Assembly: GCA_027923505.1 (NCBI GenBank)
Contig: BROI01000006.1
Location: 1,116,001-1,180,000, forward strand
Length of the DNA: 64,000 bases
Direction of reading: 5' to 3'
Source: Mayamaea pseudoterrestris
Lineage: Eukaryota
Shown here: positions 16,590 through 51,876 of the stretch, in pieces
How the letters are laid out: each line of letters opens with the position of its first letter
Position numbering within the stretch: position 1 is the stretch's first letter
Notes under the pieces: model-generated
Seen by the model: the letters and a program-made list of their open reading frames with translations, nothing else
Told to the model about the DNA's origin: nothing
Databases searched by the model: none
Program-made: the position numbers and the translations under genes

Positions 16590-19500
16590 TCACGCCCACA
16601 AGTTGCGAATGCTGGACATTAACCCCGTGCTCTCGGCTGCAGCATTGCCACTGGACTTTAATCCAGCCGGAGATGAAAACAGCTTGCGGGAAGGACTCAT
16701 GCCAGTCGGTCCGCTCATGTATTCAGCCTCGCAAGAATCGGCAATTCCAAGTATGCTTTCCACCAAACGCGTGTCGCGACAACTCTCCTGTACCAAGTCG
16801 ACAATCGACGCCAAGGCCTTTTGGTATTGTAGGCGACTGTGAACTTCGGCAACGTAGGTAGCTTGCTTCATTTTCAATTCCTCCTTGAGCTCGACTTGCG
16901 TGACACTAACCTTTTGCAACGTGCCCTTGCAGGAACCAAGTTCGGTTTGTAGCTTCTCGTTTGTCTTGGCCAGTTGCTTGGCGTGTTGATTGAGGGCTGC
17001 GAAAGAAGCTCCAGCGGAAGCATTTGCGTCCATGAGTCGCTGATTGTTTTCTTTGAGTAGGTCAAAGTCTGTTCGCATTTGGGCGTTTTGGCTGCGGAGC
17101 TTGAAGACTTCCTTGCGCAAATATTCCAGCATTTTGCCGCTTTCGTCCATGAGTCGCTGCTGCTGTTCAGTAATTTGCTGTTGTTCCTGCTCCCGCAGAT
17201 GGTGTTGCTGCTGCGATTCAACTGCAGATTGAAAGGATTCGCCGTCACGTTCGTCCTCAACCATTTCAAACGTCGCGGGGACACTGCCAAGCTCCGATAA
17301 CGATGTTTCCTTCTCTTCCTTGTACTGTTCAACAGCCTTCCGAGCTCGTTCCTCCGCCAAACGCTCGGATTCAATGTGGCGCTGCTCAGCTTCCTCGAGC
17401 TTTCGCTGAAGCGCGGCGAGTTGATTCTCAAGCTTAGCTTCGTCTTTCTTGTCTTGTAGCGCCTGTCGATACTTAGGTCGCTGCAAGCTCCCTCTTGACA
17501 TGGTTTGAATGACGATAGCAGCTCCTTTCTTGGCACCAAAAACACTCCTATCTCTGGAAATGCGCCAACGAGTTTGGATAAGGGTAGCTTTAAAGTTTCG
17601 GTCCAAGTCCAAGCGATACCTTTGCGCTAAGATGATGCGGACGCAGCACTGAACCACAATCGACGAGTTTCGCAGTCGCAGGAATGTGACACGCTTCACC
17701 CGCATTCGTTCAAAAGCAGCCACGCGGATGGAAAGCCACCGCAATTTGCGATAGCGACGACGACAAAGAAATTCGCGACTAATCTTCTGGATTTCAACGG
17801 CCCAGATACCTAGTGCTCTAACACGTTCCGCTTCAAGATATTCCAAAGCACCAGCGCGAAAATAGACTCTGGTGCGCCCAATTACAAAAGCCTTTAAAAC
17901 CTTACCATCCTCGCGAGCAATCTCAATCTCTTTAAGCGCCTTAGTGAGCAGGTGGCCGACCAGCTTGGCATTTCTCACGTCGGGATCCGACTCGTCATCA
18001 TCGGCATCCTTCGACGATGTCAAGTTAAGTGCATGAACATGCTCACCCTTGGGCCATAGTGCTCTAAACCGATCCAGCACAACGATCAGCTCCAATCGGT
18101 TGGGAAAAGCTGAGCGCGATATAGTAACTGCAGCAACCACACCCGCACATCGAAGCTGTTCGACAGTCGAATTGTGCTGCATGAGGAGAGGCTCCTTCAG
18201 CGTGTTTGGTTTAATGCATCGAATGTATCGCGTCCTCGTCTTTTTCAGTGTCTCCATGAGATCCTCCAATTGATTTCGAAATTTGGTCCAGACAGTTTCC
18301 TGAACCATGCTGCTCCCCTTTTTCTGTGGTACCGACTTGGAGTTTGCAGGCGACTTTTTGGGAGCGGGTGCCTTTCGAGGCGTTTTTGCGGCCTTGGTGG
18401 GAGACGTATCCATCATGGAGTCGTTAGTGAGCTCGTTCTTCAAAATGTCGTTTGTGCTCTTTGCTGCAAGTTCCATGTAATCGATCGGTAGTGTATCCAT
18501 GTTTTTCGTGACAAAGTTTTGCGAGTCGTAGACAACCTTGCCGGCGTAGTGAATAATTCCAAACTCAAACTCGGAGAATTGCGCCAACGTGTAAAAGCAA
18601 GGGCTTTCCTTATTCATTGCCTTTGCTTTCGATACATAGGATTTGTCGTTGCCTCCAGGACGAACGCACTCCTCGTTGAGGAATGCAAGCAGTCCCATTC
18701 GTCCCTCCACTAAATCCAACACATCTGTATTGTCATCGTATGTAATCTCACCAAGTTCAATACCTTCGTACTCATATTCAGCTTGGACGGAACGGAAAAT
18801 ATCTTGAGTAAATCTCGCCTGCAATTTCTCGTTAGCGTAATTGATGCAAAGCTGCTCGAAGCGGTTCGTCTCGAACACTTCAAAACCGAAAATATCCAAC
18901 ATGCCAATTATACCGTATTCCTTCTTCTTACCAACGCCTTCATAGTTATGTTCTGCGCAAGTGGCGGCGTTAATAGCCCGAACCAGCCACAGAAAGGTTT
19001 TTGCGTAAATCTCCTTTGCAAACGCATCACAAGAATCCTTGGCTTGGACAGCGTTGAGTGGTACTTTAAAAGCTTCATTTCGGGCTGTAATAGTTCGCAC
19101 TGTAAACGCTGGCAACATTTCGTCCTTGGGAACGCCCAACAGCTCAGATAGATCCGCAAACTCATCCTCCGACGTGATAACGGACCGGTCATGGTCGGCC
19201 TCGTCCGACTCGAATACCAAGTTGCCAAGCTGGAGAACAATGCAAATGGCTCGCATCAGTGAGGTCAACTTGTCATCCTTGATACCAACGAGTGCAAGAC
19301 TGTCGCAAGTTTGACGAAAGCGATCCGCATCGGACGTTCCTTCAATGGATTCCGTCTCGGTGAAACCAACGTAAGAAAAGGACTCATTGTCGGTATTTTC
19401 CAAACCCTTCCAAAAGCGCGTCTTGACGTCGTCGTCAGCGGCAAGCAATTGATAGAATATATGATAGGTTCGCTCCTCCTCCTCGTGACTGACAACTCGA

Positions 19501-20537
19501 CTCTTTTCCAGCAAATAAACTTCGCACTTGCTACCAGCCAGAACACACGATGGAACACACTTGCCAGCATAGGCGGCACTGACAGCATCCTCGGCGTCAA
19601 ACTGCAGTTGAATGTACTTGCCGAAACGACTAGAATTATCGTTACGCCGCGTCTTGGCATTGCCAAAGGCTTCCAATAGTGGATTGCTGTCCAAGACGCG
19701 TTGTACAATGGGTGATTCATCTTGCGACTGCTTTTGAGTCTTACTGCTGCTACGGCCAACATGGCGCTGGACACTAGCCAAGTCGCTCAACAATATTTTG
19801 ACAGTTTCCGTCTTGCCAGCTCCAGATTCTCCACTGACTAGAATGGATTGATTTTCGCCTTCGACTGCCAAGCCTCGATATGCCAAGGAGCTTGTTTCGT
19901 AAACATGTGGCGCCAAGTGCGTTCGTGCATCCATCTCCGGCGGATCATAGACTAGTGCCTTGGCATACTGATTGCGAGTATTTTCAGCGTAAAGGTCGTG
20001 GTACCACTTGTATGGGTTGCAAGCGATAATAATGTCTCCGGTTCGAGTGTATGGAAGTGCGCGTGAATGTCGCGACTTCAAGTTGTACAAAATGGCAGCC
20101 TATAAAATGTGAAAGAAGTGATTGAGAAATGCGTCCAATGACCTCTTTGTCTGTTATTGTTTCGTCTATCAAAACCATTGATCAACTCTATCTCAATGCA
20201 TATTTACCTCATGAAGAAACGGCAAATCTACCATGTCTGGAACCTCTCTCAAAACTCCATTTTCTTTGACATTCTGCAAGGGAAACGCTCCATTTATGTA
20301 TTCCTTCAATTCAATAACCTTCTTCTCGTGACGCTTGGCTTGCTTGCCGCCATCCGATTGAATGGTTAACTCATCCTTGTAGACTGGAACGCTAACAGTC
20401 GCTGTATTCGCCGTTGCATCCTTTTCTAATAGCCTGCAGGGAATCCAAGCATGTTCGGGACTGCGAATGTAAACGTGATTCGATGTATCAAGGGAAAGTA
20501 AGTTGTTTGTCGTAGTAGTAGAGGAAGCGTCCGTCAT
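16590..20537 (-). CDS. Myosin heavy chain (motor, IQ motifs, coiled-coil tail); exons 20537-20208 and 20099-16590
   Basis: DMVDLPFLHE|AAILYNL, GESGAGKT, LEAFGNAKTRRNDNSSRFGK, LDIFGFE, FEQLCINYANE, YIRCIKPN; IQ-like repeats and a coiled-coil C-terminus. Confidence 0.96.
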
Positions 20538-20624
20538 GGTCGTGTTTGTTGAATGGATGATTGCATTGGAGGACGCGACCTTGCACCTTGTCGTTTTCCG
20601 CGATGCAGTCGGAATACTAAATTC

Positions 20625-20968
20625 TTTCACTGGCAGTCGTTTCGTATTATTGCCTTTATGACGCAGTTTTCACTGGCACTCGTTTCCTATTAAAGCCTTG
20701 TGACGTAGTTTACAATGGCACTCGTTTCGTACTATTGCCTAATGACTCATTTTTCACTGGCACTTGTTTCGCTCGTTTGTCTCATGACGCAGTTTTCACT
20801 GGCACTTGTTTCGTACTATAGCCTAATGATGCAGTTTTCACTGGCATTCGTTTCGTGCAATTGCCTGATGACGTAGTTGACACTGGCACTCGTTTCATAC
20901 TATTGCCGTATGACGTAATTGACACTGGCACTTGTTTTCTAGTATTGCCTAATGACGTCGTTTTCATT
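20625..20968. repeat. Family-A 42-bp tandem array, 8 units, reverse orientation, between the divergent myosin and XRN genes
   Basis: Unit ~tttcactggcactcgtttcgtactattgcctaatgacgtagt; ggca core at 20632, 20675, 20717, 20759, 20801, 20843, 20885 and 20927. Confidence 0.95.
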
Positions 20969-21139
20969 ATTTTTTCATTGACTGGTTCACCACGCGAGCC
21001 TTCGCGAAAGCTGCATCATTCTACTCATCAAACATGACCAAGTTTTGCCCTCTTTATGAACTGCACCTTGCACAAAAACAATCAAACTTCCTGCTGCTAA
21101 TTATCGGAAAGTCAGACAGTAGTTTCCGAAAGCTTTGAA

Positions 21140-23917
21140 ATGCTTCGACAGCTGCTCCTGTCCCTTCCTTTGGTGAGTGCCTTTCTTGCGTCTCAGCTAC
21201 CGACACATTCATCATCATGGCAGCATTCGTCGCGAACAAGTCTCTTTGGAATTCGAGGTTTTCGAAGTTGGTTCGAGTCTCAATTTCCAGGAGCCATGAC
21301 GACTTTGGCGAATGACAGGCAGCATTCCGAATCCTTTGACCACGTCCTCGTGGACATGAATCAACTACTCCATGTTTGCGTGCGCAAGTCGCGGACCGAA
21401 GGACATGCACTCGTCTTGTTAATCAAGGAGCTTGATGCATTGGTGACATTGGCGACGCCACAAATTTCGCTCGTCTTGGCCATGGATGGACCGCCGCCGG
21501 CTGCCAAGCTTGCGACGCAACGAAGTCGACGGTATTCATTGCTGCGTAAGGCCGAATGGCGACGAAAGAATCTGCGAAAGATCAAGTATTTGGATGAAAA
21601 GGAGGTTGCTCGAAAGCAGAAAAGGACCGCGGCAGATGCTAAGACACTCTGCATCACTCCAGGGACGGAATTCATGGAGCGGGCGCACCAGGCAGTCATG
21701 TACTGGGCGTGGCAGCGACTTGATTCGAAAAATTCCATTTTGGCAAAGAATACGGTGCAAATTTATATTAGTCCATCGAATGTACATGGAGAAGGAGAAG
21801 TGAAACTTCTAGCATGGATCTACGATCATCAACGACGGCACAATCAAGAATCCATTGCAATCTACGGAGGTGACTCGGACTTGGTGTTGGAGGCACTGAC
21901 AATTCCGACAACCATTACCCACAATGTTTTCGTGTTATTACCGGAAGGGAACAGGAAACATTTTGCTATCAGCTTGTGGGAGACGACTCGTATTCTCATG
22001 GCAAAGCTGCCAAACAACAATATCGTTCATTTACGGACCGACCTTGTGTTGCTATTGATTCTCAATGGAAACGACTACCTTCCAAAGCTGCGAGGGTCCA
22101 GCGGCTTTCACAAGCTCTTTCAGTCGTATGTTGCGCTGCAAAAGTCATTCCCGGGGAATTTGGTGGATCCGGATACGCTCGAGTTCAATCTACAATTTTG
22201 CACTGCCTTTTTCAACAAGCTGGCCGAATCGGTTCCGCCATTTTTAAATGAAATATGGCTGCGGCAATCGACTGGCAATCAAATTGACGCTGACATGACC
22301 GTCTTATCGCAATTACATAACTATGTCGCGTCAGGGTATCTACCTGGACCTGTCGAATTTCACGTAAAGCCGACCGCGAATACAAACGTTGAGGCAGAGG
22401 ATGACACTACCTACTTTGATGCTGTCGACGACGATAGTGAAATGAGCGCTGCAACAAAGGACGACGATGGTGACGACGCCAACGTTCTTGTTCAGTTGCG
22501 TATTGGAGTAGCTGGATCGACTGACTTCTGCGTGTATGAGACGTGTAACTATGGTTCCGGTGATTTGAAGCTTGCCAAGCAAGAGCTAGCCAGTATGGCG
22601 TTGGATGACCTCTTCACTTTGGATGAAGAAATCACGATCAACGAGGAAGATGATGAGCTGGATATTTCGGATCCAGGATATGACTGGGAAGTGCAAGGCG
22701 CTGATGCGAACATTCAAGATTACTTGTATGGACTCCTTTGGAACTTACAGACATACCAGGACGGTATTTGTGCCGATTATGCCTTTAATTATGGCAAGAA
22801 GCATTCGCCAACTGCTGCCGATATCGTCAAATACTTTAAATTGGCTGTTGATGCTAACGAGACGATAGGCATATCGAGTTTGAAGCAGCAACCATTTTCG
22901 CCGGCAATGTCTGCAGGCGTTGCCTGTCTCGCGGCTTTGCCTTCTGCAGTGAAACACCTTGTCCCCCAGCCGTATCGGCTAATTTTGAATGAGACAGTCG
23001 AAGCTATATACGCGAGTTGCATCAGTCGGGTCGACAATGTGTTTGACTCGAATCGCTTCCAGAATCTATGCGATGCGGAGCTTGCAAAGCTCAGCATCGA
23101 CGCGAAAGACACCACCTCTTCCACCGCGTCGAATTCTTGCTGGACTGTCCTCTCCAAGTCTGACCGGCCATTGCTATCTCCGCATGTTCCACCGTTGCCA
23201 TTTTCGCAAAGATTGATAGCGCTGCGACCGAGTAATCGAATACGAATTAATCTCGTGCCTTATTTGGATCGACCTCGACAACGACTTTCTTGGAGCATAT
23301 ACAACAATTCGCACCGGAAGCGTGATGTTGTCCATTCTGAACTGGTTCCGTTCATGAGTAAGCTTGAGTCTTTAGAGTCTGTTCGATATAAGAAAGCGTA
23401 CATTCACACGAGTACAACCAGCTGTCACGCAAGAACAGTTGATGAGCGAAAACCAACGACTAGGGGTGCGAAGGACTGGAAAAATCGAATACGCAACGAA
23501 GACAATGAACGTCTAAAGCCCAGTATTGCAATTAAAGGCCGTCATGGGGTCCATAAAGGCAGTTTTGCAAAGACAACGCTCGACAACGCTCCAGCCATAG
23601 AGTCGCTCCAGCTTAGTGATGGCACCACGGCCGTGGCATGCCTTGGACAGCTCGTCGACGCAGGCCTTATACGCAACGTACACTGGGACGTTCCTGTCGA
23701 CAGTGAATCCGACGCAGGAGACATCTACGAAACACTCGACGTGAGAGTGTCTACCGCGGAAAGGCAATTGAGAGTGGAATGCGAGCGGAAGAAAAAAGCA
23801 GTAACAAGAAAAGTTGCAAAACAATACATGGCAGCTCAGTTACTCGAGCAGATGATAGGTGTCGGCCCGGATTGGCGCTTGATGACTTTTAAAAAGCTTA
23901 GAGACAAAGTCACTTGA
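21140..23917 (+). CDS. XRN-family 5'-3' exoribonuclease with bipartite (signal peptide + SAF) presequence
   Basis: GIRGFRSW, DHVLVDMNQLLH, AMDGPPPAAKLATQRSRR, ITPGTEFM, GEGEVK, GGDSDL, GNDYLP, YLYGLLWNLQTYQDG. Confidence 0.9.
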   Translation: MLRQLLLSLPLVSAFLASQLPTHSSSWQHSSRTSLFGIRGFRSWFESQFPGAMTTLANDRQHSESFDHVLVDMNQLLHVCVRKSRTEGHALVLLIKELDALVTLATPQISLVLAMDGPPPAAKLATQRSRRYSLLRKAEWRRKNLRKIKYLDEKEVARKQKRTAADAKTLCITPGTEFMERAHQAVMYWAWQRLDSKNSILAKNTVQIYISPSNVHGEGEVKLLAWIYDHQRRHNQESIAIYGGDSDLVLEALTIPTTITHNVFVLLPEGNRKHFAISLWETTRILMAKLPNNNIVHLRTDLVLLLILNGNDYLPKLRGSSGFHKLFQSYVALQKSFPGNLVDPDTLEFNLQFCTAFFNKLAESVPPFLNEIWLRQSTGNQIDADMTVLSQLHNYVASGYLPGPVEFHVKPTANTNVEAEDDTTYFDAVDDDSEMSAATKDDDGDDANVLVQLRIGVAGSTDFCVYETCNYGSGDLKLAKQELASMALDDLFTLDEEITINEEDDELDISDPGYDWEVQGADANIQDYLYGLLWNLQTYQDGICADYAFNYGKKHSPTAADIVKYFKLAVDANETIGISSLKQQPFSPAMSAGVACLAALPSAVKHLVPQPYRLILNETVEAIYASCISRVDNVFDSNRFQNLCDAELAKLSIDAKDTTSSTASNSCWTVLSKSDRPLLSPHVPPLPFSQRLIALRPSNRIRINLVPYLDRPRQRLSWSIYNNSHRKRDVVHSELVPFMSKLESLESVRYKKAYIHTSTTSCHARTVDERKPTTRGAKDWKNRIRNEDNERLKPSIAIKGRHGVHKGSFAKTTLDNAPAIESLQLSDGTTAVACLGQLVDAGLIRNVHWDVPVDSESDAGDIYETLDVRVSTAERQLRVECERKKKAVTRKVAKQYMAAQLLEQMIGVGPDWRLMTFKKLRDKVT

Positions 23918-24028
23918 TCCTTCTGCGTGTATATGAATATTTACATTGCAGTTGTTGACCCTTGCGTAAGGTTTGAATCGCTGCTGCTGCCATGATTCTT
24001 TACGCTATACGCTTGGTTGTCATATACA

Positions 24029-25285
24029 TTACCACTGAAATGATGGCATTATATAGTCCGGCGCAAGGACCCGCCCTTTGGCGTATGTGTTTGTTCGCTG
24101 ATTAAAGACGTCGAGAACGTTGGCCGCTCCCGCTTCCAGCAGTGCATCATCGTCGGGCAAGTCGGATCCGTGAATGCCCGTCTTCAGAATCCACAACGTC
24201 GCCAGGCCAGCCGCCGATCCTCCCGTCACGTCAGTCTCCAAAGCGTCGCCAATCATGATGGTACGCGATCGCTCAACGTTTGCTCCGATGGCTGCATGGT
24301 AAACATCTAGAAATGGCTTGCCGATGCGCTTGACCAATTGTTCTACACTTGCGTCGCCGTCCGCTGCATTACCTGCACTATCGCCAGCATCGCAAGTCAC
24401 CATCCGTAGTGCCGCCTCGTACATGTCACCAAGCTTGCCTGGCATGGGAGGAAGACCAACGTCAGGTCGCACCTTGTCGGGGTTACTCACGAGCATGGGC
24501 AACTTGCGTTGGGCGGCTCGTTGTAAAACGTTCTGCATAACTTCATCGTACTGCGCTTCGTCAATGCGTTTGTCCACAAGATTACCCGAACCGTCGCTAA
24601 TGGTAAAGGTTCCTCGCGCAAGAAGCAAGGACGCTTGCTCGACGTTTGCCAGGCTCCAGCCAGCACTCTGGCAATATTCAACGTCGGCGTCGCCACTTCC
24701 TAGAATGAGGGCTGATGGAGGTGATGAATTGAGTTTTGGCGATGGTGGTAATTGTTCTTGCTTACTTTTCAATGATGTAGTTTCTGATGCAGTATTCGTT
24801 TGCATCCATGACAAGTCAGCATTTGCGTGCTGCTCCAGCAGCATTTGATGGGTCAACTCGCCCGAGGTAATGATTTGCTCAAAGTGACTTGGATCAAACC
24901 CCAACTTTTCCAATGCAAGTATCGAATCTTGCTTTCGCTTGCTGCTGTTGCTGATAATGATCAATCGCTTGTTTGGGTGCTTGTGCTTGAGTGTTTGAAG
25001 TGTATCCAAAACGCCGACGTATGGTCTGTTTCCGTCGTGTAATACACCCCACATGTCTAGTAAAAAGACGTCGTAATCATTAATAATGTCGGATATGCCC
25101 TGAATAAGCTTCATACCGGATGCTTGAGCTGTTGCTGCGTCAGATTTGGTGGATATGAGCAATGATACTCGTTGCGAGAATGCCGATTGTCGCGTAGAAA
25201 CAAAGGCTGTGGCGTGATTAGTGCGAAGAAGAAATGACAGTAAAAGCAGAAAGATGACTTGTTTGTTCAGTCTCTGTACTCCCAT
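24029..25285 (-). CDS. HAD-superfamily subfamily IIA hydrolase, probably plastid-targeted
   Basis: FLLDMWGVLHDG, ISNSS, NPD, IGKP, MIGDALETDV motifs; signal peptide plus TAF motif. Confidence 0.9.
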   Translation of the reverse strand: MGVQRLNKQVIFLLLLSFLLRTNHATAFVSTRQSAFSQRVSLLISTKSDAATAQASGMKLIQGISDIINDYDVFLLDMWGVLHDGNRPYVGVLDTLQTLKHKHPNKRLIIISNSSKRKQDSILALEKLGFDPSHFEQIITSGELTHQMLLEQHANADLSWMQTNTASETTSLKSKQEQLPPSPKLNSSPPSALILGSGDADVEYCQSAGWSLANVEQASLLLARGTFTISDGSGNLVDKRIDEAQYDEVMQNVLQRAAQRKLPMLVSNPDKVRPDVGLPPMPGKLGDMYEAALRMVTCDAGDSAGNAADGDASVEQLVKRIGKPFLDVYHAAIGANVERSRTIMIGDALETDVTGGSAAGLATLWILKTGIHGSDLPDDDALLEAGAANVLDVFNQRTNTYAKGRVLAPDYIMPSFQW

Positions 25286-25621
25286 GCTAGCAGAATTGCA
25301 AGAGTTGCCTGGCAGTCGCAGAAAATCACGTCGACGGGACCAAAGGTAACGCTAAAGTGGCTGTGACGGATGAGGGAGGGTGTGACAGTTGCGCTGCGAC
25401 AACCCTGGCTCGGCTACGCGATCCTCTTGCTCCGACTCTTCCCTACTATATACAAGTAAATGATTTGGGGCAAGAGCATCCAATAACTTGACCACTTCAC
25501 AGGTAAACAAATCATCTTCACTGGCAGTATGGATCAGGCTATTTGACACAGGCGTTGACTGATAAGTACTCGTCTTGCATGTATAAATCTGGCAAATGTA
25601 AACCCCCGAATTGAATCTAAT

Positions 25622-26722: not shown

Positions 26723-27204
26723 GTTTTTTTGTTTGCAAATGAGATAGTGGATTACTTCGCAAACCAGCTGATTGTCAAAACCTCGCAATCCAATCATGTA
26801 TGGAGATTCAACGCGCACCTTGTCGCTCGGAAAATTGTTTCTCCAACGGCTGCCAAATCTCAAGCGTAGCATCGCATACTTGAACCACTGTGAAGCAGTA
26901 GCTCGTTGCGCATAGGCGCTTTTTAATCAGTGTCAACATTGTCAACATTCTGCATGTCATATCAAGCTCCGCTTTGCTCGAGCAGTGCTCATGTGTGCTC
27001 GTTGCATGTCGGCATCAGATTTCACGTTGGACAGGCGTCTTTAACCTAGCATCAAAAAGTGACATCGATTAATTGTAAGACGTATATCATGTTCCCAACA
27101 ACATTTGTTAATGGTTAAAGCATGAGTAAGTGAGCAAGCGAGGCGGGAACAAGCGGTCAATGGTACGTCGCCGACGATGCATGCTCGCCTTGTACTATAG
27201 TAAA

Positions 27205-27566
27205 GGAGTGCGCGTGAAAACCACGTCACAAGGCAATAGTATGAAACGAGTGCCAATGTCAATTACGTCATAAGGCTATAATACGAAACGGGTGCCAGTG
27301 AAAACTGCGTCATCAGGCATTAGTACGAAACGGGTGCCAGTGAAAACTCTGTCACAAGGCAATAGTATGAAACGAGTGCCAGTGAAAACTACGTCACGAT
27401 GTTAATCAGCGAAACGAGTGCCAGTGAAAACTGCGTCATCGGGCATTAGTACGAAACGAATGCCAGTGAAAACTACGTCACGAGGCATTATTACGAAACG
27501 AGTGCCAGTGTCAATGACGCCATTAGGCAATAGTACGAAACGAGTGCCAATGAAAACGACGTCATC
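27205..27566. repeat. Family-A 42-bp tandem array, 8 units plus 1 degenerate, forward orientation
   Basis: Unit ~ggcaatagtacgaaacgagtgccagtgaaaactacgtcacaa; tgcca every 42 bp from 27251 to 27545. Confidence 0.95.
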
Positions 27567-39885: not shown

Positions 39886-40348
39886 GTTTTATTTAGAGTT
39901 ACAGATGAGCAAGGGAGAGTCGTTGCGCCGATGCCTGCGACAAATCGGAGACGCTTTCGTCATGGTGGAGAGAAGATTGCGATGGGCGAAGGTCATCGTG
40001 ACGGTCATTGCTCGACTTGAAGTTCTACGGCACTATAGGATTGAAAGTAGATGATATCTTCAACATTCGTAGAAGTGAAAAGCTTCTTGTTATGCCTTCT
40101 CCGAAGCAAGCTGCGGGCAACGAACAGAAATTTGTTTGGAAAGGGCTGGTGGAAACGCCGTTCCGTCCTCGTCAAAATCGGTCTCATCTCCAAACAATCG
40201 AGGTGCGCTACCCGAGTGCGATACGGACAACACTCTGCATTGGATCCGCTTCTTGTCCAAAGTTCCTTCATCGCCTGCTCGCCTCGCGGCAGAACTCGCT
40301 CGAAACTCGTGCCGACGAGTTGCATCAGCAGGTTCTGCGTACGTAACC

Positions 40349-40558
40349 AGGCAATAGTACGAAACAAGTGCCAGTGATAACAACGTCATGAGGCAATACT
40401 GTGAAACGAGTGCCAGTGATAACTACGTCACGAGGCAATAATGTAAAACAAGTGCCAGTGATAACTACGTCACAAGGCAATACTGTAAAACGAGTGCCAG
40501 TGAAAACTACGTCATAAGGCAATACTATAAAACGAGTGCCAGTGAAAAGTACATCACG
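40349..40558. repeat. Family-A 42-bp tandem array, 5 units, between the divergent DUF1769-like and FTHFS genes
   Basis: ggcaata...aaac(g/a)agtgccagtga(t/a)aactacgtca repeated with a 42-bp period. Confidence 0.95.
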
Positions 40559-43418: not shown

Positions 43419-44963
43419 CACCAATCTCAGCCCGCAGATGCCATGACATTCAAACGCCCCTACAGCAGGCCCTGTAGGTGCCCAAATTACACCAGAATGG
43501 TGCCAACATCATTTTTCAGGCTGCGCTACAAGATACTATGCCTGGCTGGTGTCTCAGGGGATGGCAATGTATTTGGTGACAACTTGTCACCAGTCTCAGC
43601 CTGCAGATGCCATGACATTCAAACGCCCCTACAGCAGGCCCTGTAGGTGTCCAAATTACACCAGAATGGTGCCAACATCATTTTTGAGGCTGCGCTACAT
43701 GATGGTAAGACTGGCTGATGTCTCAGGGGATGGCAATGTATTTGGTGACAACTTGTCACCAGTCTCAGCCTGCAGATGCCGTGACATTCAAATGTCCCTA
43801 ACACAAGCCCTGTAGGTGCCCAAATGACACCTGAATGGTGCCAATATCATTATTTAGGCTGCGCTACAAGATGATATGCCTGGCTGGTGTCTCAGGGGAT
43901 GGCAATGTATTTGGTGACAACTTGTCACCAATCTCAGCCCGCAGATGCCATGACATTCAAACGCCCCTACAGCAGGCCCTGTAGGTGCCCAAATTACACC
44001 AGAATGGTGCCAACATTAATTTTGAGGCTGCACTACAAGATGGTAAGATTGGCTAGCGTCTTAGGTGATGGCAATGTTTTTGGTGACAACTTGTCACCAG
44101 TCTCAGCCCGCAGCAGCCGTGACATTCAAACGCTCCTAACGCAAGCCCTGTAGGTGCCCAATTTACACCAGAATGGTGCCAACATCATTATTCAGTATGC
44201 GCTAAAAGACGATATGCCTGGCTGGTGTCTCAGGGGATGGCAATGTATTTGGTGACAACTTGTCACCAATCTCAGCCCGCAGATGCCATGACATTCAAAC
44301 GCCCCTACAGCAGGCCCTGTAGGTTTCCAATTTACACCAGAATGGTGCCAACATCATTTTTCAGTCTGCGCTACAAGACGATATGCCTGGCTGGTGTCTC
44401 AGGGGATGGCAATGTATTTGATGACAACTTGTCACCAATCTCAGCCTGCAGATGCCATGACATTCAAATGCCCCTACAGCAGGCCCTGTGGGTGCCCAAA
44501 TTACACCAGAATGGTGCCAACATCTTTTTTCAGGCTGCGCTACAAGATGATATGCCTGGCTGGTGTCTCAGGAGATGTCAATGTATTTGGTGACAACTTG
44601 TCACCAGTCTCAGCCCCGCAGATGCCATGACATTCAAATGCCCCTACAGCAGGCCCTGCAGGTGCCCAAATTACACCAGAATGGTGCCAATATCATTATA
44701 TAGGCTGCGCAACAAGATGGTAGGCGTGGATGGCGTCTTGAGGGATGGCAATGTATTTGGTGACAACTTGTCACCAATTACAGCCCGCAGATGCCATGAC
44801 ATTCAAACACCCCTAACGCAAGCCCTGTAGGTGCCCAAATTACACTAGAATGGTGCCAACATCATTTTGCAGTCTGCGCTACAATCTGGTAAGATTGGCT
44901 GGTGTCTCAGGGGATGGCAATGTGTTTGGTGACAACTTGTCACCAGTCTCAGCCTGCAGATGC
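43419..44963. repeat. 169-bp tandem satellite, ~9 units, each with the palindrome tggtgacaa-c-ttgtcacca
   Basis: Recurring ORF starts 169 or 338 bp apart (43549, 43887, 44225, 44394); the array stops at the copia LTR at 44965. Confidence 0.95.
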
Positions 44964-51084: not shown

Positions 51085-51876
51085 CGTTGTCGTCGTGACA
51101 ATGTTCTTGCTATCACCTGCGGAACTTTCCGGGCCAAGAACCAACGTGCGTCCACGTTACTTCGTAAATCAATAGTACTCTTCGTCGATAAAGTCTCTAT
51201 GCCGAGGCAATGAGTCTCAAGACAGTGTTAATCTTGTAACTTGTAAATCAAATCGTTGCACCTTTCGCTTGTAGCTGTCCTTGGATGGCCAATCCAAGCT
51301 TGCAGTTGCTACAATACGAGAGACGAATAAATCGCTTTCTTAACTCTTCAAGCTTAGTAAGTCTGCTTGTTTCTACTCTATATCGCACTAGTTTCAGCAA
51401 TATACTTGTTGAATCGCTTCGAAGCCGTCGCTGCCACGCATCACGCGATCGTGAGGCTGTGGTGAGCCGCGAGTGCCGCTGTGTCACCCTATCGGACATT
51501 CGGTGTGACTTGCCCGATTTTCGCTGTTTTCGTTCGCATCCTGCAATTGTAACTTGTAAATCAAATCGTTGCACCTTTCGCTTGTAGCTGTCCTTGGATG
51601 GCCAATCCAAGCTTGCAGTTGCTACAATACGAGAGACGAATAAATCGCTTTCTTAACTCTTCAAGCTTAGTAAGTCTGCTTGTTTCTACTCTATATCGCA
51701 CTAGTTTCAGCAATATACTCGTTGAATCGCTTCGAAGCCGTCGCTGCCACGCATCACGCGATCGTGAGGCTGTGGTGAGCCGCGAGTGCCGCTGTGTCAC
51801 CCTATCGGACATTCGGTGTGACTTGCCCGATTTTCGCTGTTTTCGTTCGCATCCTGCAACTCCCCTCAAGTCATAC

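Follow-up and report, generated by a model that had tools for sequence, protein, structure and literature searches.

RNase J is regarded as the enzyme that trims plastid RNA in the 5'-3' direction and is essential in plants, and the corresponding enzyme of diatom plastids is unnamed in the literature searched (most subscription journals lie outside that scope). According to PMC7154860, plant RNase J matures 5' ends and removes antisense RNA. Our literature search also found no plastid-targeted exoribonuclease of the XRN family, and no XRN with double-stranded RNA-binding domains (dsRBDs), described in diatoms or their relatives. In Chlamydomonas, an organelle-targeted XRN was reportedly predicted computationally by Zimmer, Fei and Stern in 2008. 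Here we analysed a stretch of 64,000 nucleotides (the window) from Mayamaea pseudoterrestris (contig BROI01000006.1, positions 1,116,001 to 1,180,000, assembly GCA_027923505.1), which carries on its plus strand, at 21140-23917, a single intronless open reading frame (ORF) of 925 amino acids. This is a real gene encoding a true XRN, which is an orthologue of neither XRN1 nor XRN2, has a new architecture and is predicted to work in a new compartment. With moderate confidence we favour the view that it is a stromal 5'-3' exoribonuclease with dsRBDs, which stands in for RNase J by trimming and clearing plastid RNA that is structured or duplex, its location, activity and double-stranded RNA binding all being predicted.

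To define the nuclease, the protein was scanned with Pfam, which matched XRN_N at residues 37-255 (E 2.6e-41, 142 bits against a cut-off of 22.9). Conserved region 1 (CR1), the catalytic part, spans 21248-22231 on the plus strand. Its seven acidic residues (D72, D116, E218, E220, D245, D247 and D312) showed zero substitutions over 113 aligned rows, with gaps in 10 rows at D72 and in 3 at D116, so the intact catalytic motifs seen in an earlier sequence-only reading of the window were found again. The 5'-phosphate pocket was near-invariant, K123, R130 and R131 being kept in 111 rows and Q127 in 103; these residue roles were assigned by alignment to Xrn2 together with the customary XRN numbering. 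H78, also near-invariant, aligns with His61 of C. thermophilum Xrn2, which stacks the substrate as described in PMC9512700. Conserved region 2 (CR2), a helical domain at residues 522-650 (22703-23089, plus strand), gave an XRN_M match just below the cut-off at residues 525-621 (E 6e-5, 22.6 bits, cut-off 23.8) and matched XRN1-type CR2 at 97% in HHalign. Trp668, downstream of CR2, is invariant (113/113 rows) and may be the partner Trp of the stacking pair, equivalent to Trp706, although the HHalign alignment stops short of it. XRN1 C-terminal domains were not matched in the Pfam scan.

An AlphaFold model built from 113 sequences (mean predicted local distance difference test score 84, predicted template modelling score 0.77) matched human XRN1 with a Foldseek E of 1.7e-21 and a VIA-align Z of 26.7 (root-mean-square deviation (rmsd) 3.7, 494 residues aligned). 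Among the 48,161 solved chains searched by VIA-align, ranks 1-16 were taken by XRNs and FEN-type nucleases. We regard the protein as very probably an active nuclease. A role in plastid DNA metabolism, where a FEN1-like 5' nuclease would remove RNA primers or RNA:DNA hybrids, could be argued from the FEN1/Exo1 fold that XRNs share and from a plastid-localised exonuclease among the structural neighbours (Z 11.8). However, we regard it as very improbable: the match to XRN1 is far better (Z 26.7 against at most 14.0), the 5'-phosphate pocket and the stacking His of XRNs are kept, and dsRBDs prefer A-form RNA duplexes.

Ahead of the core, the protein has a predicted bipartite plastid presequence. 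Residues 1-14 (21140-21181, plus strand) form a predicted endoplasmic reticulum (ER) signal peptide with a hydrophobic window of 2.6 and cleavage after Val-Ser-Ala. Residues 15-36 (21182-21247, plus strand) form a predicted transit peptide of 22 amino acids, with Phe at +1 (Phe15), 41% Ser/Thr, no acidic residue and a net charge of +1, which ends in Thr-Ser-Leu-Phe right before Gly37. The first homologue search returned 201 relatives, and the presequence counts rest on the 120 that were listed; 45 of these were left out of the test, 19 without the XRN start motif and 26 with fewer than 30 residues before it. Among the matches listed, 57 of the 75 orthologues with an extension of at least 30 amino acids passed the bipartite rule, compared with 4.6 expected from shuffles, indicating a presequence beyond chance, and the query passes it too.

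The cleavage site before the first Gly of the XRN showed a clear pattern, with Leu or Ile at -2 in 83/88 sequences and Thr at -4 in 66/88. N-terminal proteomics of Thalassiosira (PMC3774753) found transit peptides of 12-42 amino acids with Leu at -2 and hydroxylated residues at -3 to -6, and the predicted transit peptide of the query is a match to this measured diatom stromal-peptidase motif. Since the cleavage pattern ends at the first Gly, the predicted stromal cut would leave precisely the N-terminus of a cytosolic XRN that has lost its Met; removing the first four XRN residues lowers activity, as stated in PMC9512700. A search for the term XRN in seven supplementary files of PMC3774753 gave no match. 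On these sequence features stromal import appears likely, with good confidence, and the plastid targeting proposed by the sequence-only reading is upheld as a prediction.

The start of the gene was examined from the ORF and from public sequencing data. A stop codon in frame at 21098-21100 makes ATG 21140 the earliest possible start, and the second in-frame Met is Met54, inside helix 1 or beyond and past the start of the XRN domain, so that no in-frame Met would give an intact cytosolic form. A real start downstream of the signal peptide, which the sequence-only reading had allowed for, was thus not borne out for this gene. Four public sequencing runs, from one study, hold the XRN stretch; none is recorded as RNA, and their RNA nature was inferred from spliced joints. 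Three of them (X2-X4) behave as RNA, since the myosin gene next door appears in them without its intron at 20098-20207 and the intergenic repeat is missing. The contigs of these three runs start at 21039, 21052 and 21059, extending 80-100 nt upstream of ATG 21140, cover 21039-23949 on the plus strand and have no splice joint within the gene. An unspliced upstream exon or an alternative start was considered for the query, and is ruled out by these contigs and the positions of the in-frame stop and Met codons. An upstream ORF of 14 codons was also observed at 21056-21100 (plus strand), which is in frame with the XRN start and ends 39 nt upstream of it, inside the extent covered by two of the three RNA-type runs.

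If the N-terminal extension were unused, the protein would be cytosolic or nuclear like other XRNs. Met stands right before Gly in 18/88 orthologues, a possible cytosolic isoform in those species, and red-algal orthologues start at that point. In the query gene, however, it is Phe that precedes Gly37, the RNA-type contigs begin upstream of ATG 21140, and the genome already has XRNs without a presequence, three of its five, which makes this explanation highly improbable.

Two further segments have the fold of a dsRBD, at the places where the sequence-only reading had seen dsRBD-like patterns. The first (dsRBD1, residues 386-494; 22295-22621, plus strand) lies in the CR1-CR2 linker and was identified by AlphaFold, VIA-align and profile. 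As a refinement, it was found to carry an acidic insertion of about 35 residues between strands 1 and 2 (residues 412-447; 22373-22480, plus strand). The second (dsRBD2, residues 826-910; 23615-23869, plus strand), identified by VIA-align, HHalign and profile, is a C-terminal duplicate of the first. In the AlphaFold model both segments follow the alpha-beta-beta-beta-alpha order and have confident cores. The VIA-align results showed that dsRBD1 matched dsRBD5 of Staufen over 70/70 residues (Z 8.0, rmsd 3.0) and dsRBD2 the SSM-RBD5 chain of Staufen1 (Z 7.2, rmsd 3.0, 74 aligned), and 33/34 of the chains at ranks 17-50 were dsRBD-bearing proteins, judged by title or by what is known of them. With the acidic loop omitted, HHalign found the two domain profiles homologous to each other (97.8% probability, E 9e-13). 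The dsRBD1 profile matched 121/121 family members and the dsRBD2 profile 99/121 (query included); up to three C-terminal copies were present in some members, and three or four copies in total in some diatoms. Neither profile matched any of the 120 members of a second presequence-bearing XRN family, that of locus L004 described below.

Outside the diatoms, the dsRBD was followed by fold and by annotation. The predicted model of a brown-algal orthologue has a dsRBD fold in the same linker (Z 7.4, rmsd 2.9, 82 aligned), and Pfam dsrm matched below threshold in the linker of 4/28 distant relatives. In members from outside the diatoms, the linker domain escaped the diatom dsRBD profiles; that the two are equivalent is argued by the same position, the same fold and the weak Pfam matches. 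Members from Tribonema and Cardiosporidium are named 'DRBM domain-containing' in UniRef, so automatic annotation had already noticed the domain in two members. In the ESM Atlas, dsrm-clan neighbours of both segments were found at 0.76-0.87, below the 0.9 threshold, which makes them leads only, and a profile search of PDB sequences did not find a dsRBD. Judging from the models, both segments very probably have a dsRBD fold.

To place the enzyme among XRNs, the family was extended by a profile search of 1.84 billion representatives, a second homologue search and cluster look-ups. Members were found in brown algae, xanthophytes, pelagophytes, Emiliania, the apicomplexan Cardiosporidium and red algae. 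An unrooted tree was built from 64 chosen rows and 342 columns (LG+G4, dsRBD columns omitted). The canonical XRN1/XRN2 clade (19 rows) had support 100/100, or 99 in another tree, and left the query outside. The query falls in a 35-row clade (support 93/95), in which every named member is a red alga or belongs to a red-plastid lineage. This placement is that of a divergent XRN clade shared with red algae and apart from XRN1/XRN2, and a red-algal donor is suggested. The sequence-only reading had proposed that a eukaryotic XRN was retargeted to the plastid. This holds in so far as an XRN carries a predicted import signal, but a recent retargeting of XRN1 or XRN2 does not fit the divergent clade; the XRN1-derived enzyme with a presequence is instead L004. 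Four distant XRNs were found on viral contigs; two of them were placed in the tree, both apart from the 35-row clade, which gives no hint that the query's clade came from a virus. Separately, five low-GC short XRNs (L022 and L023, on viral contigs, L068, L070 and L072) form a clade of their own (support 100/96), which lies with the divergent XRNs and is distinct from the red-lineage clade.

We also surveyed the other RNA-degrading enzymes of the genome. Five genes have an XRN_N domain: an XRN2-like gene, an XRN1-like gene, an XRN1 fused to a proteasome beta subunit, the query and L004. The fusion (L003 / L107), which is in frame, lies at G000:C16:230870 onward on the plus strand and encodes at least 1448 amino acids. 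L004 (G000:C6:827022-830846, minus strand) is an XRN1-type XRN with a bipartite presequence, one intron and no dsRBD profile match. Of the 120 family members listed for it, 46 were testable, and 39 of these passed the bipartite rule where 2.7 were expected; Leu stood at -2 in 49/49. L004 branches on the XRN1 side of the tree with support 92/82. Since L004 is XRN1-side and the query belongs to the divergent clade, two separate XRN lineages carry an import signal.

RNase J was not found in the nuclear assembly, a negative that strengthens the contrast drawn by the sequence-only reading with RNase J of plant plastids: the full-length RNase J model matched only a CPSF73-like gene (E 8e-5), and PF22505 gave no match. 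PF07521 matched the same CPSF73-like gene and a DNA-repair-type nuclease, both identities being our own reading of these matches. RNase E was likewise not found in the nuclear assembly, either with PF10150 or with a full-length model. A full-length PNPase model detected two PNPase genes, one with a bipartite presequence, and the nuclear assembly also gave five RNase II/R-family and three RNase III-domain matches. The short PNPase model PF03726 missed both real PNPases, so the negatives of the short models PF22505 and PF10150 have little weight and those of the full-length models weigh more. To our knowledge, diatom plastomes lack RNase J and RNase E.

These results suggested how the enzyme might work. 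The signal peptide would be cut after Ala14, and Phe15 would direct the protein to the stroma, where the stromal peptidase would cut after Leu35-Phe36 and leave Gly37 as the N-terminus. The enzyme would then degrade RNAs with 5'-monophosphate ends, while the dsRBDs in the linker and at the C-terminus would hold stem-loops or sense-antisense duplexes to let the nuclease get past them, and L004 would share the work as a second presequence-bearing XRN. Precedent for an accessory domain comes from C. thermophilum Xrn2, whose zinc finger promotes the decay of structured RNA according to PMC9512700. We lean towards an RNase J-like role for the query as the probable one. The removal of antisense or double-stranded RNA, also put forward by the sequence-only reading, is a role that we infer, the dsRBDs being non-canonical.

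Several observations weigh against this proposal, and those on import are taken first. The targeting rule, which asks for a signal peptide followed by Phe and by a transit peptide that is not acidic, is home-made from criteria in PMC3774753 and stands in for ASAFind, HECTAR and SignalP, and the signal peptide of the query is short, at 14 amino acids. The bipartite form of the presequence was found in diatoms and pelagophyte-like members. In at least nine members from outside the diatoms, a hydrophobic signal runs right up to the Gly; lacking both a transit peptide and a Phe at +1, they misfit canonical stromal import. Brown algal, xanthophyte and apicomplexan proteins are among these signal-only members (P0174, P0269, P0227, P0229, P0230, P0240 and P0286; L037, L051, L063 and L091), in which the predicted cut lies immediately ahead of the Gly. 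In five loci (L035, L041-L044) a signal peptide without Phe at +1 is followed by a long peptide that ends in LRGG right before the XRN's first Gly, a ubiquitin-like ending suggesting a different processing protease; no matching paper on this motif was found in the literature searched. Red-algal-type proteins begin with Met-Gly in 9/10 cases and have no presequence, and five Cyanidiales-like loci (L026-L030) have an in-frame stop five codons upstream; the linker of red-algal members is acidic and gave no dsrm match by sequence.

These N-termini could mean that the enzyme acts in the periplastid compartment, the remnant red-algal cytosol, or in the lumen of the chloroplast ER, or that the diatom form is split between compartments. 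The red-algal members without a presequence, the signal-only members and the five LRGG loci all speak for such a location. On the other hand, the presequences of diatom members combine Phe at +1 with the stromal cleavage motif (Leu at -2), and no RNA substrate is known in the periplastid compartment, as diatoms have no nucleomorph. We therefore consider a periplastid or ER location quite unlikely.

As for the dsRBDs, a Z of 7-8 sits in the ambiguous range of VIA-align, and a Z below 8 can reflect a common arrangement of elements, so the case rests on whole-domain coverage and the uniform match list. Pfam dsrm had no match in the query or in any of 45 diatom-type homologues. The GPxH loop and a KKxAK-type patch at helix 2 are motifs of RNA-binding (type A) dsRBDs. 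GPxH was absent from the beta1-beta2 loops of both domains (0/112 and 0/85), the strand 1-2 loop of dsRBD1 is strongly acidic (median 48 residues, median net charge -23), and dsRBD1 mostly has a hydrophobic residue where KKxAK has its first Lys. The second and last basic positions of the patch are conserved in both domains, with Lys/Arg at 477 in 99/113 and at 480 in 109/113 in dsRBD1 and the pattern R/K-K/Q-x-x-K in dsRBD2.

It may be, then, that the enzyme is stromal and active but uses its dsRBD folds as protein-binding (type B) modules, for dimerisation or for docking on a partner or the plastid ribosome, and acts on a restricted substrate, for example the 5' ends of rRNA, rather than on antisense duplexes. 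The lack of GPxH and the acidic beta1-beta2 insertion fit this explanation, and the top structural matches include the Staufen dsRBD5, Loquacious dsRBD3 and DRB7.2:DRB4 interaction domains, which we take to be protein-binding. Moreover, a divergent nucleolar XRN of T. brucei, XRNE, processes rRNA 5' ends as described in PMC3854532. Nevertheless, the helix-2 basic residues are kept in both domains, Z differences below 1 are ties and RNA-bound dsRBDs score equally, and the copy number of up to three or four in some diatoms is as expected for RNA avidity. Taken together, we judge the protein-binding explanation unlikely, and RNA binding by the dsRBDs is favoured by a modest margin of belief.

Two points concern the replacement of RNase J itself. 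The RNase J negative comes from one genome and a loose search, in an assembly without the plastid genome, and L004 could be the real RNase J stand-in. With these in mind, we tentatively suggest a broader picture, which we hold as possible and somewhat short of probable: diatoms, perhaps with other red-secondary-plastid algae, would have lost the cyanobacterial RNase J and RNase E, and plastid 5'-3' maturation and antisense clearance would be done by two independently recruited eukaryotic XRNs. One would derive from an XRN related to that of red algae, which worked outside the plastid at first and later acquired dsRBDs and an import signal. Across lineages its presequence would take three forms (signal only; signal with LRGG peptide; signal with Phe and transit peptide), and cleavage of any of them would expose the same Gly as N-terminus. 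The second would be a retargeted copy of cytosolic XRN1. If this is true, the signal-only form of Cardiosporidium would point to an apicoplast XRN.

The gene is flanked by a myosin gene (16590-20669, minus strand; intron 20098-20207, called as 108 nt) and by a HAD hydrolase with a bipartite-looking presequence (24029-25351, minus strand). Arrays of a 42-bp repeat, with 5-9 copies and 78-87% matches, were found at 20625-20966, 27202-27564 and 40340-40557, and one of them lies inside the XRN/myosin promoter region. Very high depth of this repeat was observed in one run, which suggests a genome-wide dispersed satellite. The window also has a tandem array with a period of 169 bp (9.1 copies, 43419-44963) and another with a period of 313 bp (2 copies, 51234-51859).

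Compared with XRN1 and XRN2 (Rat1; PDB 9e70, 2y35, 3pie, 7opk and 5fir), the query shares the CR1/CR2 core fold (Z 23.7-26.7 over about 500 aligned residues), the seven acidic residues, the 5'-phosphate pocket, the stacking His and the N-terminal Gly-Ile/Val helix. It differs from them in having only about 20% identity, in its place outside the canonical clade and in the predicted bipartite plastid presequence, and in its family one dsRBD sits in the CR1-CR2 linker and one to three others follow at the C-terminus; this linker is flexible in C. thermophilum Xrn2, as reported in PMC9512700. The dsRBDs share with those of Staufen, Loquacious, DRB4 and RNase III the whole alpha-beta-beta-beta-alpha domain and a basic patch at the start of helix 2, whereas the query family has no GPxH, has Asn/Asp in place of the helix-1 Glu and carries the long acidic loop in domain 1, and its diatom members have no Pfam dsrm match.

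T. brucei XRNE and XRNF are, like the query, divergent XRNs whose catalytic residues are intact, and their specialised role is in rRNA 5' processing (PMC3854532); they are nucleolar, and no domains outside XRN_N are reported for them. Chloroplast RNase J, a beta-CASP enzyme, would share the predicted compartment and the direction of decay, and presumably the function, with the query; it is a metallo-beta-lactamase of cyanobacterial origin and also an endonuclease, whereas the query is a eukaryotic XRN, unrelated in fold and origin. The organellar XRN predicted in Chlamydomonas differs in that it comes from an alga with a green primary plastid where RNase J is present, and it is not known to carry a dsRBD. 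The present analysis thus offers two concrete candidates for 5'-3' trimming in the diatom plastid, together with a new XRN architecture in which a dsRBD lies inside the nuclease, and if the proposed role is right, a decay enzyme of eukaryotic origin would here have taken over a gene expression system of bacterial type.

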